Part shown: positions 13,691 to 31,948 of the stretch, piece after piece | Numbering within the stretch: the stretch's first letter is position 1 | How the letters are laid out: every line of letters starts with the position of its first letter | Assembly (NCBI GenBank): GCA_032230695.1 | Contig: JAVXWP010000059.1 | Coordinates: forward strand, 36,080 to 100,079 | DNA length: 64,000 nt | Source of the DNA: Actinomycetota bacterium | GTDB lineage: Bacteria; Actinomycetota; Actinomycetes; Mycobacteriales; Pseudonocardiaceae | Reading direction: 5' to 3' | Translations under genes and position numbers: made by a program | The notes under the pieces: generated by a model | What the model saw: the letters and a program-made list of their open reading frames with translations, nothing else | Databases searched by the model: none | Told to the model about the DNA's origin: nothing

Positions 13691-16098
13691 CAAGGAATCG
13701 AGCCGGCCGGTTGGCGGGCGAAGAGCGGTCGCCCTCCCACCGCCCGCTGCGGATCGTGCTGGTAATGAAAACAAGCCGTGGCGGGCAGTTCACGCTTCCC
13801 CATATCGACGAACTCCGTTCGCGGGGGCATGAGGTGATCGCGGTGCTGCCACGGGGGGAGGGGAACTTCCGCACCGCGCTGACCGAGCGCGGCGTCACGA
13901 TCGTCGACAGCCCGTTCGAATTCAGGTTCCGGCCGACGTACTCGGCTGTCACCGGGCTTTTCGGGCTGCGCCGCGAACTCCGGGCGCTACGACCGGATGT
14001 CCTGCACTATCACCTCTACGCCTCGGCACTCGCCACCCGGCTGGCGAGCCTCGGACTCGGGATTCCCCGCGTGCACATGGTCGCCGGACCGCTGTACCTC
14101 GACTCACCGCTGATCCGGGCGGCCGAACGCGTGCTCGTCCGCCTTGACACGGTCACGATCTGCGGAAGCGAGTTCACCGCGCGGCGGTATCGCGAACTGG
14201 GCCGGACGGTGGCACAGTCGCCTGTCATCCCCTACGGCGCCGACACCGAGTACTTCCGTCCGCTCGATTCCGATGTCCGAACCCGCGTCCGTGCCGAAGT
14301 CGGCATCGAGCCCGGTGATTTCGTGGCCATCATGGTCGCACTGGTCTACAGCCCGAAACGGCTCGTTCACGCCGGACGCGACATCAAGGGCCACGACGTG
14401 CTGCTGGAGGCGTGGCGCGGCTTCCGGGCAGAACACCCAGCCAGTCACTTGATACTGGTGGGCGGCGGTTTCACCGACGCGGGTGAACACCAACGGCGCG
14501 AGATGATGGCCCGGTACCGCACCGGTTCTCCCGCTCATGGCGTGACCTGGCTGGACACGGTCGCGGACGTCAGGCCGTACTACGCCGCCGCGGACATCAG
14601 CGTCTCCCCCTCTCTGTCGGAGAACCATGGCGCGGCGCGCGAGGCCTGCGCGATGGGGGTGCCGAGCATCGTCAGCGATGCCGGCGGACTCCCTGAGACT
14701 GTCGAACCGCAATCAGGCTGGGTGGTCCCCCGCGGCGATTACGAAGAACTCGCCACCGCACTGCGCCACGCTCATGCCGAGCACCTTCGCGGGGAACTGC
14801 CCCACCGTGGCGCGCGAGCCCGGGCGCTCGCGCTCGAGCGCTTCGAAGACGCCCGGGTGACCTCGGAGGTGGCGGACGTGATCGAACGAGCGGCTATACC
14901 GGCCGTCGGCCGGATCCGGCGCGGACCGACCGTGTTCAGCGTCTTCACGGAGGCGAGATTGACCATCCAGGAAAGCGGCGGCTGGGCTCCGCTCGACCCC
15001 GCCACCCGCGGCCAGCAGTGGGATCGGTACACCCACGACGGCAGTCAGGTGCGCGTCGCCGCCAGGGCGCGACGCCGGCCCAGTGCCGAATCGGTCGCCA
15101 TGCCCGAGGGCCTCACAGTGGTGCCGCTCCCCTACTACGTCGGAGTCGCCGGCCTGGCCCGAACGCTCCTGCCGCTCGCCCGATCGGTGTGGCGAGCGGT
15201 CGCCGACGCGGAGACCATCCTGCTCCGAGTCCCGGGGGTGATGGGTTCGATCGCCGCTCTCGCGTGCCGGATCCTGAGGCGTGACTACGCGGTGGAAGTA
15301 GTCGGCGATCCGGGTGACGTGCTGCGAGCCGGCGTGCTCGGCGGGACCGGTCGCCGGCTGGCACCACTCGCCGAGGCCCACATGAGATGGCTCGTCCGCC
15401 ACTCCGCCGCCTCGCTCTTCGTCACCCGCGAGACCCTTCAGAACCGGTACCCCGGTCGCCGGGGAACCCCGACGACCGCGATGTCGAATGTCTCGCTAAG
15501 CCCCGGAATGATCGTGCCACGCGCCAGGACCTGGACACCCGGCCCGATCCGGATAGTGGCGATCGGCAGCCAGGAGAATCATTACAAGGGCCACGATGTG
15601 CTCCTGAAAGCACTGCGCGAACTGATCAGCAAGGGTATGGACGTCACAGTCACCCTTGTCGGCGGAGGGCGCGCGCACACCGAACTCGTCGAACTATCGC
15701 GGTCGCTCGGCATGACCGCGCATGTGTGTTTCACCGGCGCGGTGAACGATCGGGCGCACATCAACGAAATACTCGACTCCGCAACGGTTTTCGCCATGCC
15801 GTCGCTCACCGAAGGCATGCCCCGGGCCCTCATCGAGGCGATGGCCCGTGCACTCCCCGCCGTCGGCTCGCGCATCGGCGGCATCCCCGAACTGCTCGAA
15901 ACATCCTGCCTGGTGCCGGTTGGGGATCATCACGCGCTCGCGAGCGCATTGGGCGATCTGGTGTCGGACCCAGGCGCCTGGGAAGAGCAGTCCAGGAACA
16001 ACCTCAAGATCGCCCAAACCTATGAGAAGGCACTTCTCGACGATCGGTTCTCGACCTGGCTCGCCCGCGTGCCCCCGGCCCGGCGGCGGCCGGAATGA
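13687..16098 (+). CDS. fused double GT4 glycosyltransferase (~803 aa)
   Basis: Start taken at GTG 13687 (GTGA overlap); the ORF-track extension to 12913 overlaps the dehydrogenase. Two complete GT-B units: SPSLSENHGAAREA...SDAGGLPE and PSLTEGMPRALIEA...GGIPE. Confidence 0.87.
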   Translation: MTRNRAGRLAGEERSPSHRPLRIVLVMKTSRGGQFTLPHIDELRSRGHEVIAVLPRGEGNFRTALTERGVTIVDSPFEFRFRPTYSAVTGLFGLRRELRALRPDVLHYHLYASALATRLASLGLGIPRVHMVAGPLYLDSPLIRAAERVLVRLDTVTICGSEFTARRYRELGRTVAQSPVIPYGADTEYFRPLDSDVRTRVRAEVGIEPGDFVAIMVALVYSPKRLVHAGRDIKGHDVLLEAWRGFRAEHPASHLILVGGGFTDAGEHQRREMMARYRTGSPAHGVTWLDTVADVRPYYAAADISVSPSLSENHGAAREACAMGVPSIVSDAGGLPETVEPQSGWVVPRGDYEELATALRHAHAEHLRGELPHRGARARALALERFEDARVTSEVADVIERAAIPAVGRIRRGPTVFSVFTEARLTIQESGGWAPLDPATRGQQWDRYTHDGSQVRVAARARRRPSAESVAMPEGLTVVPLPYYVGVAGLARTLLPLARSVWRAVADAETILLRVPGVMGSIAALACRILRRDYAVEVVGDPGDVLRAGVLGGTGRRLAPLAEAHMRWLVRHSAASLFVTRETLQNRYPGRRGTPTTAMSNVSLSPGMIVPRARTWTPGPIRIVAIGSQENHYKGHDVLLKALRELISKGMDVTVTLVGGGRAHTELVELSRSLGMTAHVCFTGAVNDRAHINEILDSATVFAMPSLTEGMPRALIEAMARALPAVGSRIGGIPELLETSCLVPVGDHHALASALGDLVSDPGAWEEQSRNNLKIAQTYEKALLDDRFSTWLARVPPARRRPE

Positions 16099-17198
16099 CG
16101 GTGGAACCAGAGGTTCAGACCGTAGTCAACGTGCTGGGCACGCTCGACCGCGGCGGTGTGGAGACCGTCGCCCTCGATTTGTGCCGCGCGATCCCAGCCA
16201 CCGACACTCGCCAGATCTTTCTGACGATGGGTGATCGCGAGGGACGGCTGGCGTCTCAGTTCCGCGCGGTGGGAGCACTCGTGCGCCGCTGCCCGGTCAA
16301 GCCGAAGATTCTCTTTCCGTTCCGGCTGTGGTGGTGTCTGCGGCAGATCCGGCCCCAGGTAGTGGTGTCCCATGTCAGTGTCGTCAGCGGACTGGTGCTG
16401 GCGGCGGCGGCCGCCGCAGGGGTCCCGGTGCGCATCGCCCGGATGAGCAGCGAGGGTGACGGCCGCCGCGACACCTTCCCTCGGCGGCTGCAACGAGCCC
16501 TGCTGCGTGCGATGTTGCGGCGCTCGGCCACCGATGTCCTCGGTGTCACCGCCGGCTCTCTCGCCTTCGCGGCCCCGCGTGCGGGCGACCCGCGCTACCG
16601 GGTTCTGCCCAACGGTGTCGACGTCGAGCGGTTCGCCCGCATCCCCGGGACCAGGAACGGACGTCAGCTGCCGCCGTCGCTCCTCTACATCGGCCGCGCG
16701 GCACCGGAAAAGAACCGCGGTTTCCTGCTGCGAGTTCACACGGAGGCGAAAGCCCTGTGCGTGGGAACGACCCTCACCATCGCCGGCCCAGGTGGGATCG
16801 CAGACCTGGAGGCCGTCGATCCGGCGGTCTCGGCAAATTCGTCGGTGCGACTTGCCGGTGAGACCGACCAGGTCGAAGCGATCCTCGCCGACGGCGACGT
16901 GCTGCTGCTGCCGTCCCTCTGGGAAGGTCTGCCAGGCGTGGTCCTTGAGGCCCTGGCCGCGGGGATCCCGGTGCTCGCCACGGATCTCCCCGGTCTGCGG
17001 GATCTGGCCGAGGAGGTCGACGGCCTCACCTTGCTGCCACTCAGCGCGGGGCCGTTGGTGTGGGCTCGCCGGGCGCTGACCCTGTCAGGTCTGGCCGCGG
17101 GCGAGCGCGATCGGATCAGCGAGAGTGTGTGCGGTTCGCGGTTCACCCTGAACAGCTCGGTGGCGGCCTGGTCGGAACTGTGGACCGCTTCCCGATGA
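16095..17198 (+). CDS. GT4 glycosyltransferase
   Basis: RGGVET, IGRAAPEKNR, PSLWEGLPGVVLEA (EX7E). Confidence 0.92.
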   Translation: MTVEPEVQTVVNVLGTLDRGGVETVALDLCRAIPATDTRQIFLTMGDREGRLASQFRAVGALVRRCPVKPKILFPFRLWWCLRQIRPQVVVSHVSVVSGLVLAAAAAAGVPVRIARMSSEGDGRRDTFPRRLQRALLRAMLRRSATDVLGVTAGSLAFAAPRAGDPRYRVLPNGVDVERFARIPGTRNGRQLPPSLLYIGRAAPEKNRGFLLRVHTEAKALCVGTTLTIAGPGGIADLEAVDPAVSANSSVRLAGETDQVEAILADGDVLLLPSLWEGLPGVVLEALAAGIPVLATDLPGLRDLAEEVDGLTLLPLSAGPLVWARRALTLSGLAAGERDRISESVCGSRFTLNSSVAAWSELWTASR

Positions 17199-27748: not shown

Positions 27749-28384
27749 CTACGCACCGTGTTCAATGAGCCCGCAACGAACGCCGGTCATGAGCGCCTGC
27801 GCGCGGTTCGAGGCACCGAGTTTCACGTACAAGCGGGCGACGTAGGTCTTTGCGGTGGAATGGCTGAGAAACATCGAACGCGCGATCTCCGGCACGGACA
27901 TCCCGTCACCGAGCCTGCTCAGGACTTCCCGCTCGCGAGGACTCAGACCTGACTGATCACGCTCGTATGCCCGCCGGGACAGTGCAGGCGCGAGCCCTGC
28001 GGCGGAGAAGGAATTCGCGGACACCGCCGCATGCCGGATGGCGGCGAGAACCTCGGCCGTCGAAGCGGTCTTCGCGACGAACGCCGACGCGCCGGTTTCG
28101 AGAGAGCGGAAAAGCACCTCGTCCCCGGTGTTGGACGTGAGCACAACGATGCCGAGGCCGGGGTAGTGGTCACGGAGCGTCCGCGCGAACTGAAGCCCAT
28201 CGCCATCTGGCAACGTGACGTCCACAGTGACGACATCGGGCTGCGCGGCCGCTATGACTCGTGACGCATCGGTCACGGAACCGGTTTCCGCGAGGATTTC
28301 GATGTCGGGCTGCAGGGCGATCAGCCCGGCCAGACCATACCGGGTCAGGGTGTGGCCTCCGACAGCAACAATTCCAATTGCCAT
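27749..28384 (-). CDS. NarL/LuxR-family response regulator with atypical receiver
   Basis: ATG 28384 after GAGG; REC (PDVVTVD, VLTS, FVAK) plus LSPREREVL...STAKTYVARLYVKLG HTH; the acidic pocket reads VGGH instead of VDDH. Confidence 0.88.
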   Translation of the reverse strand: MAIGIVAVGGHTLTRYGLAGLIALQPDIEILAETGSVTDASRVIAAAQPDVVTVDVTLPDGDGLQFARTLRDHYPGLGIVVLTSNTGDEVLFRSLETGASAFVAKTASTAEVLAAIRHAAVSANSFSAAGLAPALSRRAYERDQSGLSPREREVLSRLGDGMSVPEIARSMFLSHSTAKTYVARLYVKLGASNRAQALMTGVRCGLIEHGA

Positions 28385-28632
28385 TTCGACAGCACCTCTA
28401 TTCTCCTGACACGGATCCGACGACGTCCGCCTCGCATTACCGCGATATTCACCCACTAGTAGAGGGAAACGGCGTATTTGGTTCGCGTCGGCTAGGTTCA
28501 AGGCTGGCGCTGTGGATAAAGCCCTGCACAGCACGTTAGCACCTGTGAGCCCGGTGCTGGCGTCCTGCAACCAATCGCGACCCGTTGTCGCCCACAGCCA
28601 ACATCGCTCCAACGCAGGAAAGTGGGAGCCCG

Positions 28633-29147
28633 ATGGTGATCTTGTTTTTTCTCACGGCGATTCTGAGCCTGACCGTTGGATCCTCTCTCAACGTCGTCAC
28701 CCACCGTGTTCTCCACAGGGCATCCGTGCTCGCCCCCCGCTCCGCATTGTCCGGCCTGTGGGCGGCACGCCGATCAGTTACCCGTACCCACTCATTGAAC
28801 TGACTGCCGGTGGGAGCTTGGCTCGCGCCGGGGGCGGGGCGGGCGCGTTGTTCGGGTTCTACCTGTTGCTGAGCTCCCCGCATCCGGCGGGCATGGGATT
28901 GGGGAGAGTCAGGCTTGCCGGCATCGTCGGCGCCTTGCTGGCATATCTATCCTTGCCTGCCCTGGTCATCGGCGCTTTCGGCGGCTTCCTGCTCGGGGCG
29001 GTCGCGGGTGTCATCACCATTGCCGGCGGCCGTGGATCACGCAAGACCGCACTACCGTTCGGCCCGTTCACGGTGAGGACGGCACCTCTGGCGGTCTTCG
29101 CCGCACGACCGATCACACACGCCTATCTCGACCTGCTCGCAACCTGA
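28633..29147 (+). pseudogene. pilD: prepilin peptidase (A24) pseudogene
   Basis: GSSLNVVTHRV..PRSA; a +1 shift at 28747 restores CPACG; another frame gives YPLIELTA and the C-terminal GMGLGRVRLAG...LPFGPF (catalytic Asp lost); central TMs deleted. Confidence 0.82.
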
Positions 29148-29281
29148 CCGGACCACCGAGCTACCGCTGGGTACTCCAGCTCAGCACGGTTACCGTCCGT
29201 GGCGCGCTACCGGAAACCCGGACTCTTTACCCGCAGTCGCAGTTTTCCCGAAGCCTGGACAAACGTAGACCTTCAAATACA

Positions 29282-29510
29282 TCAGATTCGGACCGAATAC
29301 CAAGCGTTGATCGAGACTTGAGCGGCCGCGTCGGCGTTGTAGGCGTTCGCGCCTTGCTCACGCAACGCGACCGTGGACCGGCGGCTCACGAAGGCGAACG
29401 ACAGGGGAGGCGACCGCCCCTGTCCCCACCACCGAGATTATGACAAGAGCGAGGATCAACACGGCGCCGTCGTCGTGACGAAAGCCACGACTGCGCGTTC
29501 TGCCGGTCAT
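29282..29510 (-). pseudogene. PilX-like minor pilin pseudogene
   Basis: GGAGG plus ATG 29510: MTGRTRSRGFRHDDGAVLILALVIISVVG; removing one base in the C4 run (29404-29407) restores LSFAFVSRRSTVALREQGANAYNADAAAQVSINA; truncated. Confidence 0.7.
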
Positions 29511-29512
29511 GT

Positions 29513-30055
29513 CTACCTCCGTCGACCGTCGAGATTGAGGACGTATGCGACCTGGCGTTCTTCGGGTCCTTGATCGAGAGCGACATCGTGACCCTGTTCG
29601 GTGCGGCCGCGACTGTGCAGGTCGACGAGCAGGTGAGGACGGGTGCGATGCCGGATTCTGGCTGTAGGCGCCACCCAGGTCCGAGACCGAAGTGACCGAA
29701 CCGGCACAGGCGAGCCGGTGCCGTTTCTGGCGTAGGCCAGCTCACGCTCGTGAGGATGCCCAGCTCGGCTGGTTTCTGGCCAGTTCGGCATCGACGATCA
29801 ACTCACCGATGTGCCTGCCGCTGCGGACGATCTCCGGCGCTTCCGCGGCGTCAGGACGATCCGCCACCGGTGCAACTCGCGCGTCCGATTGTCCGCGGCG
29901 GTGGCGCATCATGGCATCACACCCGCACGCGCCCTCGGACCATGCTCGATGTCCTTCGGAAAGAGGCAGCGGTGAGCAGCAGGTCCGTACCGCCAGCGCC
30001 CCACAGTACGGTCAAGGAGCGAATCCACCCGTGCGCCGATCGGGGGTGAGTACAT
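29513..30055 (-). pseudogene. heavily decayed prepilin-like (PilW/PulJ-type) gene
   Basis: Fragments across frames: DRRTGGF, LLLTAASFRRTSSMVRGRV..HDA, CSSTCTVAAAPNRVTMSLSIKDPKN and YVLNLDGRRR*; the stop sits next to the pilX-like RBS. Confidence 0.45.
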
Positions 30056-30103
30056 GCCTGCCTACGGGTTTGCGAGTGTGGCGACTCACTCGGCAGCAGG
30101 AAA

Positions 30104-30145
30104 CCGAGATGTCCCAGTGCGACGCGGTGCACTGGAACATCTCGG
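30104..30145 (-). terminator. 17-bp stem-loop immediately downstream of pilA
   Basis: CCGAGATGTCCCAGTGC (30104-30120)/GCACTGGAACATCTCGG (30129-30145), followed by TTT on the minus strand. Confidence 0.7.
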
Positions 30146-30150
30146 CGGGA

Positions 30151-30499
30151 TCAGGGACAGCCGCCCGCGCCGACGAGGGTGTAGCTCGTCGGCGGTGTGC
30201 CGGTCCCCACGGTGTAGGCGACCGTGGTCGGTAAGGAGTTCAGGAACTTGTTGGGGTCCGCCGTCAAGATGGTAAGCGTGGCGGGATAACCGGCATTCTT
30301 AGCGGTGTAGGCCTCGACAACGACCTGGGTCGTGGTCTTGTCGGCTTGGCATGCCGCTAACTTTTCCGCGATCGCTGAGCCCGTTGACCGCGAAGACGAG
30401 GACCGCGGCGAGTGCGCCCAGGATGACAACGACGATCAAGCGTTCGATAAGTGTGAAACCGGCATCGTCCTCCCGAGGTCCACGGCGCTTTCGAAGCAT
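30151..30499 (-). pseudogene. pilA: type IV major pilin, frameshifted
   Basis: GAGG plus ATG 30499: MLRKRRGPREDDAG|FTLIERLIVVVILGALAAVLVFAV; one extra A in an A4 run (30362-30365); the corrected frame continues LAACQADKTTTQVVVEAY...GAGGCP* (115 aa). Confidence 0.85.
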
Positions 30500-30511
30500 G
30501 ACTTTTCCTCT

Positions 30512-30543
30512 GATACGGCAGCCGACCAGATTGCCGTATCGGC
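30512..30543 (-). promoter_or_regulatory. 9-bp inverted repeat plus sigma-28-like -10 box upstream of pilA
   Basis: GATACGGCA (30512-30520)/TGCCGTATC (30532-30540); the minus strand reads GCCGATAC (30543-30536) versus the FliA consensus GCCGATAA; -35 is poor. Confidence 0.4.
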
Positions 30544-31072
30544 CGTCCGATTTCCGACAAATTGGCCGGCAACGTTCAACGAAAAAATCAACCGGATGCC
30601 CCTCACCGCGCGGGGCTTCCGATTGCTTCGTGTAACCCGGATTTCCATCTGGAAGCGTGACCGAACGCGAACAGCAACCACAGCAGGTGAATGGCCGACA
30701 CTGCGCCCCGTCGGGCGGACGGTTGTCGGCCAGACGGTCAGCCATTCGTATGACGTGTCGTCCGTTCGGCCGACAATGCATGGGTGATGTGGGCCTCCCC
30801 CCGCGAAATCGCGAGTGTTCTATGATCGACTGGGTTCGTGTTCGAGGTTGGCTTGCCAACGGCCCCGCAAGAAACACAAACCGGCAGATCACGGCCCAGA
30901 AACCCGCCGAGTGGTCGGCAATCGAGTGCAGGACCGGCATGCCGCACCTGCCCTGCACCTCAATTGAAACCGACATGCTCCTTTCAAGGATACGCATTCC
31001 TTCGCCAGCCGCGACCCGCGGATCGGTGAACGGAAGGAAATGCGGACACCTCGATGGTCAGGGAAGGAAATC

Positions 31073-31948
31073 GTGATAGCACAAGGAAACGATACGGATG
31101 CCTTGGTGCGCACCCACGTCCCGCTCGTGGCACACTACGTTTCGCAGTTGCTCTGCAAACTTCCCCCGCACATCGAGCGCGCCGATCTGACTTCGGCGGG
31201 CTTGACCGCCCTGGTGCTACTGGCGCGCACCTACAATCCTGCACAGGGCACCCCGTTCGCCCAGTTCGCCAGCGCCCGCATCCGTGGTGCGCTGATCGAC
31301 GAACTGCGCGGACTGGACTGGGTGAGCCGTTCGACCCGTGCCCGCACCCGGCAGGTGAAAGCCTGCCGGTCGGAGCTCGCTGTCAGCTTGTCGCGGACTC
31401 CGACCTCGGCTGAAATCGCGGCCTCACTGGGCTTCAGGGTCCGAGACGTCGAGACCGCGGAAAAGGACGAACGGCAGTCGGCCTTGCTGAGCCTGCACGA
31501 TCTGACACCCGAGTTCGTGGACAACCTGATCCGCGACCACACCCCGAGCCCTGAGGACCTCGTTCTGCGGCGCGAGCGGGTCGGCTACCTGTGCGCCGCC
31601 ATCGAGGCACTTCCCCGGCGGCTGCGAACGGTGGTCGTCGAATGCTTCATCCACGAACGGTCCCTGTCGGAGATCGCGAAGGAGTTGGCCGTGACCCATT
31701 CCCGTGTGTCGCAGATGCGGACGGAGGCGCTGACGCTGCTCCGTGATGGCATCAACGCCCAGCTGGATCCCGATCTGGTCGCCGCACGCCGTACGCCGTC
31801 GTGGCGTGCCGTCCCGACGAGGCGCGCCGCGTACTACGCGGAGATCGCCGCCAGCGGCGACCTCCGCAGCCGGCTCACGCCCGTCGATCTCGAAGAACTC
31901 CTCCCTTCCTCACCCATCGCGCTGGCCGAGCAGCGGGTCCACAGGTGA
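31073..31948 (+). CDS. fliA: FliA/WhiG-family (sigma-28) RNA polymerase sigma factor
   Basis: GTG 31073 after GGAAGGA; DLTSAG, FAQFASARIRGALIDELRGLDWVSRS, LSEIAKELAVTHSRVSQMR; C-terminal RRAAYYAEIAA tail. Confidence 0.9.
   Translation: MIAQGNDTDALVRTHVPLVAHYVSQLLCKLPPHIERADLTSAGLTALVLLARTYNPAQGTPFAQFASARIRGALIDELRGLDWVSRSTRARTRQVKACRSELAVSLSRTPTSAEIAASLGFRVRDVETAEKDERQSALLSLHDLTPEFVDNLIRDHTPSPEDLVLRRERVGYLCAAIEALPRRLRTVVVECFIHERSLSEIAKELAVTHSRVSQMRTEALTLLRDGINAQLDPDLVAARRTPSWRAVPTRRAAYYAEIAASGDLRSRLTPVDLEELLPSSPIALAEQRVHR

Follow-up and report, generated by a model that had tools for sequence, protein, structure and literature searches.

Introduction

Once constraint on a gene is lost, bacterial pseudogenes decay under a deletion bias, accumulating many deletions and few insertions. 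Mira, Ochman and Moran are said to have described this deletional decay of bacterial pseudogenes in 2001. In the current study, we examined a 64,000-nucleotide (nt) stretch of DNA (here called the window), which is contig C165 of an Amycolatopsis metagenome-assembled genome (MAG; genome G000, 6.65 Mb in 190 contigs, 93.6% complete, 67.2% GC). At positions 28633 to 30499 it carries the broken remains of six pilus genes, namely, pilD, a GspK/PilX-like gene, a GspH/J-like gene, pilB, pilT, and pilA, and not one intact pilus gene is left in that interval. These 1.9 kb are what survives of an 8-gene, 7.9-kb type IV pilus (T4P) operon. We consider it very probable that they are a nonfunctional relic of a chromosomal operon which decayed in situ in one lineage of uncultured Amycolatopsis. 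There is no difference in kind from general deletional decay, to which the relic is alike in having a datable deletion between 8-bp repeats and substitutions at the synonymous rate; it is an ordinary pseudogenized operon shrinking under deletion bias, and what sets it apart is only that a single locus is available in its intact, sister, and decayed states.

One described point of comparison is the type IV pili of Actinoplanes missouriensis zoospores (Kimura et al. 2019, J Bacteriol 201:e00746-18, cited in PMC13083903). These, too, are actinobacterial T4P, and their host likewise has sigma factors of the FliA family. Unlike that zoospore system, the relic's MAG has no match to the flagellar export protein FlhA, and the tie to motile actinobacteria that the initial annotation had drawn finds no support here. 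Amycolatopsis is regarded as a nonmotile genus and is not known to form zoospores.

A literature search found no paper on Amycolatopsis pili. Within the genus, the A. mediterranei/rifamycinica/tolypomycina group (genomes G005, G007, G002, and G010) has an intact cluster, whose genes carry NCBI annotations such as prepilin peptidase, whereas the window's copy is destroyed. This G005-type cluster is alike in order and orientation (pilA, pilT, pilB, pilC, a 146-amino-acid [aa] pilin, a 250-aa prepilin, a GspK-like gene, and convergent pilD); its GspK-like protein has 709 aa, and NCBIfam backs the assignments, with PilT scoring 441 bits on TIGR01420 against a cutoff of 319. However, the flanking genes are different, no FliA-family sigma factor gene is adjacent, unlike in the relic lineage, and aa identity between the cluster types is only 65 to 74% in the core proteins. 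Given the different flanks, the genus has the cluster in at least two genomic settings. In the A. mediterranei-group genomes (L015 of G005, 15019 to 17188), what lies upstream of pilA is not fliA but a set of three secreted-protein genes, whose products have signal peptides of the alternate type.

What this study adds is a reconstructed locus that is intact and ancestor-like, the recognition of stubs of pilT and pilB, the observation that pilA broke last and did so twice, and a check of the relic against the neutral rate.

Results and Discussion

The relic extends from the start codon of pilD (ATG at 28633) to that of pilA (ATG at 30499, minus strand), exactly the extent first assigned to it. 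The short open reading frames (ORFs) between the pilD and pilA remnants had no domain matches in Pfam; run on single fragments, Pfam was too weak here, and the pilin N terminus alone rose above a cutoff. Comparison of the window with relatives' loci by tblastx was swamped by high-GC noise and was replaced by tblastn with intact proteins. With the G005-type cluster as the first reference, this gave a general map and exposed, next to the pilA remnant, an N-terminal piece of PilT that the initial annotation had missed. On this reference the matches to pilT and pilB were marginal (E, 7e-4); with a closer reference, the loci L059 and L060 described below, both became significant. When the intact proteins of this nearest relative were used as genome-wide queries, E values were 1.6e-37 for pilD, 4e-31 for pilA, 1e-12 for a minor-pilin C terminus, 1.2e-9 for the pilT stub, and 3.6e-8 and 2.7e-7 for pilX. 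Every match was confined to the relic locus, in the order and orientation of the intact cluster. Elsewhere in the MAG, tblastn revealed no second copy of PilB, PilC, or PilT, and PF00437 and PF00482 had no matches in the MAG at its 93.6% completeness.

The search for relatives with an intact cluster next to fliA, proposed at the outset, succeeded. The intact locus consists of two overlapping contigs from the same metagenome, L059 and L060, which share 127 nt at 100% identity and are about 90% identical to the window in the flanking genes. Its order is LuxR regulator, pilD, convergent pilX, minor pilin, pilin147, pilC, pilB, pilT, and pilA, followed by divergent fliA. A search of a large protein collection with the read-through relic PilD returned 775 homologues at an E of ≤1e-10, the intact ones having both PF01478 and PF06750; the intact 262-aa PilDs on L055, L056, L057, and L059 are 79 to 80% identical to the relic, and the left context of all four is that of the window (LGFP beta-helix, DegT, GAF-ANTAR, sigma factor, small ORF, and LuxR) at 85 to 90% nt identity. 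L060 was found by a FliA search (homologue 90% identical) and carries the minor pilin (full length, 201 aa), pilin147, pilC (401 aa), pilB (591 aa), pilT (392 aa), and pilA. Past pilA, and divergent from it, come fliA, KAS, DUF6431, and PAS-GGDEF-EAL genes, which match the right context of the window at 90% nt identity. The three minor pilins of the intact locus are GspI-like (147 aa), GspH/J-like (201 aa), and GspK-like (520 aa). In the window itself, the left-hand anchor is an intact gene for a 211-aa LuxR-type response regulator (27749 to 28384, minus strand), and the right-hand anchor is the intact FliA-family sigma factor gene (31040 to 31948, plus strand).

The presence of an intact syntenic cluster in a relative about 90% identical in the flanks indicates that the pil cluster decayed in place, and the island donor invoked as an alternative source by the initial annotation becomes superfluous, given that the intact genes lie between the same LuxR and fliA genes. 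The cluster next to fliA includes a PilT-family ATPase, and an intact syntenic set of eight genes with this ATPase strongly supports, at the gene level, the proposal that the lineage once made type IVa pili.

The pilD pseudogene (A24 prepilin peptidase; 28633 to 29147, plus strand) is recognizable from its N terminus at 28633 (MVILFFLTAILSLTVGSSLNVVTHRV...) to its end at 29147 (...PFGPF...ITHAYLDLLAT). Codons 1 to 35 share one frame, which then shifts by +1 at a run of six C's (28733 to 28738); HCPACG is encoded at 28745 to 28762, and a second frame change at 28762 to 28764 coincides with a deletion of about 68 nt. Two deletions, of roughly aa 44 to 67 and aa 84 to 150, leave the gene a net 275 nt shorter, the latter being an in-frame deletion of about 205 nt that takes out the first catalytic Asp (LIDLDFHRLP in L059). 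The C-terminal 111 codons (28812 to 29144) have GLGR where L059 has GPGD (the GxGD motif), and both catalytic aspartates of an A24A prepilin peptidase are thus missing. The frameshifts, internal loss, and missing Asp read from the letters at the outset are therefore all there. Over 95 residues, the relic C terminus is 79% identical at the aa level to the 262-aa L059 PilD (the genome-wide match at 1.6e-37 given above). PF01478 scored 11.1 bits on the pilD fragments, below its cutoff of 26.5, and PF06750 had no match on them.

Convergent with pilD lies the GspK/PilX-like minor pilin pseudogene (29161 to 29510, minus strand), which tblastn resolved into two parts around a deletion. The N-terminal part, of about 65 codons, occupies 29510 to 29303, with a frame change near 29405; the C-terminal part, of about 50 codons, occupies 29294 to 29164, with a frame change near 29226; the interior (aa 66 to 471; about 1.23 kb) is deleted. 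This gene had been called broken and truncated, and broken it is, but truncated it is not, since both ends survive. The intact PilX homologue has 520 aa in L059 (709 aa in G005), and its match to the GspK NCBIfam model is weak. Next comes the GspH/J-like minor pilin remnant (29513 to 29725, minus strand), the third prepilin-like gene, which is indeed in fragments: the C-terminal ~74 of 201 codons remain, spread over three frames, and the prepilin N terminus went with a 3.6-kb deletion. The junction of this largest deletion (29726 to 29776, minus strand) replaces 3671 nt of the intact locus, covering aa 1 to 127 of the minor pilin, pilin147, pilC, and aa 44 to 591 of pilB.

Of pilB, a stub remains at 29777 to 29912 (minus strand), with the first ~43 codons (MMRHRRGQ...RSGRHIGELIVDAELA). 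It is 81% identical to the intact protein over 21 aa and 71% identical at the nt level over 195 nt; its start and the pilT stop overlap, an arrangement shared with the intact locus, and it is the sole remnant without a frame change. The pilT stubs (29909 to 30055, minus strand) comprise an N-terminal piece of about 29 codons (30055 to 29968; MYSPPIGARVDSLL, then a frame change, then LTVLWGAGGTDLLLTA) and a C-terminal piece with the last ~20 codons (29980 to 29912; ...LFPKDIEHGPRARAG), aa 57 to 371 having been removed by a 946-nt deletion. Both pilC and pilin147 are completely gone from the window. The window was originally said to lack pilB, pilC, and pilT; this holds for pilC, but not for the other two, whose stubs are present. 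With a 43-codon pilB stub and no pilC, the window has no type IVa assembly machine, and the surviving ends of pilT do not amount to a PilT/PilU-family retraction ATPase.

The major pilin pseudogene, pilA (30151 to 30499, minus strand), is the best preserved. From 30499 it begins as a textbook prepilin (MLRKRRGPREDDAG/FTLIERLIVVVILGALAAV...) and keeps the G-1/F+1/E+5 motif, the hydrophobic helix (DDAG/FTLIERLIVVVILGALAAVLVFAV, 30469 to 30386), and both Cys codons; its PF07963 (N_methyl, class III signal peptide) match, at 25.6 bits against a cutoff of 21.2, is the only one above a Pfam cutoff for any relic fragment. As first noted, the gene has a +1 frameshift: one extra base in a run of four T's (30362 to 30365) loses the frame after ...DRGK. 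It is otherwise full length, although the frame does not run uninterrupted through the globular C-terminal domain. Across the relic there are at least eight frame changes (two each in pilD, pilX, and the minor pilin and one each in the pilT N-terminal stub and pilA).

The initial annotation had also listed pilMNO among the genes absent from the window. However, PF11104 (PilM_2) has no match in G000 and none in G005, G007, or G010 either, which are complete or near-complete genomes with an intact cluster. Because the family goes unmatched in these three as well, the absence of pilMNO is a property of this lineage's system rather than a lesion.

The lesions were mapped by DNA alignment of the window with the composite of L059 and L060, which yielded five collinear blocks at 71 to 86% identity. 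Block 28350 to 28766 takes in pilD codons 1 to 44; after it, 321 nt are missing and 46 are present, this gap being the two pilD deletions on either side of a retained GTPISYPYPLIELTAG piece. Block 28813 to 29251 (pilD codons 152 to 262 and the pilX 3' end) is followed by the loss of the pilX interior, with 1279 nt missing and 52 present, and block 29304 to 29725 (the pilX 5' end and the minor-pilin 3' end) is followed by the 3671-nt gap, with 51 nt present. After block 29777 to 29971 (pilB codons 1 to 43 and pilT codons 372 to 392), 946 nt are missing and none are present, and block 29969 to 30644 (pilT codons 1 to 56 and pilA) has no further gap. Overall, at least five deletions have taken about 6.05 of 7.9 kb (~76%). 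Nucleotide identity to the intact relative is 78 to 86% in the pil remnants and 89 to 94% in the flanking genes. As a separate observation, four of the seven original gene boundaries are kept despite the loss of 76% of the DNA, the deletions tending toward gene interiors and sparing gene ends; the rough binomial p is near 0.07, which is not significant.

A sister contig from another sample (L058; 3300044807), 98 to 99% identical to the window, allowed the decay to be dated in part. It carries all the large deletions and the pilD frame changes, and for pilD, pilX, the minor pilin, pilB, and pilT it has each of the lesions seen in the window. The pilA lesions differ: the window has the additional base at 30362, which is absent from L058 and L060, and L058 lacks 22 nt (window 30250 to 30271), a deletion that truncates its pilA. 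By parsimony, these different lesions mean that pilA broke last and independently in both lineages, the gene having still been open in the common ancestor of the window and L058, when the rest of the cluster was already wrecked. The claim that the assembly genes were deleted first is only half borne out: pilA came last, but the order among the lesions common to both contigs is not recoverable, and the first gene to be lost may have been pilD or a minor pilin.

Decay has continued since the split. The window alone has lost 3 nt at 29465 and 108 nt at 29738, the latter between 8-bp direct repeats (AGCTCACG); the 108-nt segment is kept in L058, where it encodes PilB aa ~85 to 120. Such a window-only loss between direct repeats indicates that microhomology-mediated decay is still going on. 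In a comparison of the window with L058, which covers post-loss time only, the relic has 29 substitutions in 1865 nt (1.55%), and six intact neighbor genes have 24 synonymous changes over about 1472 synonymous sites (1.63%), their overall divergence being 42 changes in 5703 nt (0.74%). Since the value for the relic is close to the synonymous value of its neighbors, the relic evolves at the neutral rate. In fliA, there are only three substitutions, too few for dN/dS.

Taken as a sequence of events, the ancestral state would have been that of L059 and L060, with pilA, pilT, pilB, pilC, three minor pilins, and convergent pilD between the LuxR gene and divergent fliA. The pilus machine would then have fallen out of use, selection would have lapsed, and microhomology-mediated deletions and small indels would have accumulated before the split from L058. 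As the smallest target, pilA would have stayed open longest and been hit separately in each lineage. We infer that the ancestor assembled pili, that the loss was neutral rather than selected, and that the flanking sigma factor once drove the operon.

Several points weigh against in situ decay of a once-working operon. That pili were once made is read from gene content. The MAG is 93.6% complete, and so the absence of pil genes elsewhere in the genome is not proven. In this regard, a tadA-like PF00437 ATPase locus is present in all five other genus genomes searched (G126, G137, G138, G158, and G005), and homology of G000 to the G126 locus (L063, G126:C71:52000-68000) starts only at base 34 of contig C60; this conserved locus falls off the C60 end, and the MAG-wide lack of PF00437 may be an assembly gap. 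Furthermore, the two contigs that match the window at 100% identity, one from a JGI metagenome (3300044739) and one from Logan (SRR24887413), may derive from the same reads as the MAG, and single-base lesions, such as the pilA +1 and the one in the C6 run, are known from assemblies only.

The relic is a routine one and does not change the understanding of how pili work. It does document an unstudied, PilMNO-less, PilT-containing T4P cluster that is patchy in antibiotic-producing Amycolatopsis, and it offers a clean natural series (intact, sister, and decayed) in which to measure, for a high-GC actinobacterium, what deletions arise and in what order genes are lost.

One alternative is that the cluster arrived horizontally within an accessory region of about 45 kb and was never used by its recipient. 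The nearest genome to G000 is G126 (rpoBC 97.9% nt identical), and the locus is absent from the nearest genomes by RpoB that were searched (G126, G137, G138, G158, and G053). Window positions 1 to 45500 have no orthologous DNA in G126, G137, or G138, which places the relic in an accessory region; homology to G126 resumes patchily from about 45.5 kb, at 86 to 94%, over several G126 contigs. Of 146 genus genomes, only 36 have a T4P-type pilD; all 36 fall in the clade that RpoB places farthest from G000 (93 to 95% identity), and their pilD lies in another context. The low core-protein identity between the cluster types is a further point in favor of this alternative. However, an intact version lies in exactly the same context in the ~90% identical relative, which means that the common ancestor of these lineages already had the region, including an operon that looks functional, and neither the GC content nor the codon bias of the window is anomalous. 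We therefore regard a failed acquisition as improbable. Separately, we observed that the region of exopolysaccharide, ANTAR, pilus, and sigma factor genes is accessory in the clade yet conserved (85 to 90% nt) in several soil-type metagenome contigs.

Equally improbable, in our view, is that the remnants keep a function, either with pilA held by selection as a moonlighting pilin or with the stubs or intergenic region serving the expression of fliA. In its favor, pilA was still open at the lineage split with the rest already destroyed, fliA is intact, and the divergent pilA-fliA intergenic region (30500 to 31039), aligned across the window, L058, and L060, is better conserved relative to the intact relative than are the pil remnants, with long invariant blocks (e.g., 30691 to 30649). 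But pilA is now broken in both lineages and no prepilin peptidase partner remains. Moreover, at about 1 lesion per 500 nt in the remainder of the cluster, a 350-nt gene has a roughly even chance of going untouched, and the late survival of pilA needs no selection. No promoter was identified in the intergenic region, where both a sigma-70 scan and Rfam were without a match. A candidate sigma-28-type promoter upstream of pilA (GCCGATAC at 30543 to 30536) was rejected; it has no convincing -35 element and is not conserved in L060. Just upstream of pilA there is also a 9-bp inverted repeat (GATACGGCA-N11-TGCCGTATC, 30512 to 30540), the upstream arm of which is not conserved in L060.

That the lesions are assembly or sequencing errors or collapsed repeats hiding working pil genes is highly improbable: although the genome is a 190-contig MAG, the evidence comes from assemblies, and two lesions fall in short homopolymer runs (C6 at 28733 to 28738 and T4 at 30362 to 30365), base-calling errors cannot account for four gaps of 0.3 to 3.7 kb, the JGI assembly does not differ from the Logan one, substitutions have accrued in the relic at the synonymous rate, and L058, from an independent sample, shares the major lesions and has others that are private to it, which shows that the relic is not an assembly artifact.

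The window FliA is, as noted, 90% identical to the copy beside the intact pilus operon in L060. No orthologue was found in 60 same-genus genomes, whose paralogue is only 33 to 36% identical. Its best named homologues (51 to 56% identity) belong to genera that form zoospores, including Planomonospora, Planobispora, Dactylosporangium, Pilimelia, and Spirillospora. In the named genomes that were examined, among them those of Planomonospora, Actinomadura hibisca, and Pedococcus, the 10 kb on either side of fliA contain no T4P genes. The adjacent FliA-family sigma factor is most likely pilus linked and not flagellar. One speculative, and on balance doubtful, possibility is that it was a dedicated regulator of the pilus operon and was kept intact after pilus loss through other targets that it had acquired, such as the neighboring c-di-GMP and exopolysaccharide genes, with control elements in the conserved 540-nt intergenic region. 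The locus thereby flags a FliA-family sigma factor that has outlived its sole obvious neighboring target in an organism without flagellar genes.

The locus also holds a warning for annotators, since gene callers render the relic as five or six hypothetical proteins and a spurious ORF of 213 to 232 aa. The 232-aa ORF (30299 to 30997, minus strand), reported as a 213-aa protein by the Logan gene caller, spans the pilA N terminus and the entire intergenic region in the pilA frame and is almost certainly spurious. Elsewhere in the genome, a second A24 peptidase gene (contig C66, 30356 to 31051), with an open frame of 231 aa immediately upstream of the chorismate synthase gene (aroC), appears to be intact; it is taken to be a housekeeping copy with no link to pilus genes.

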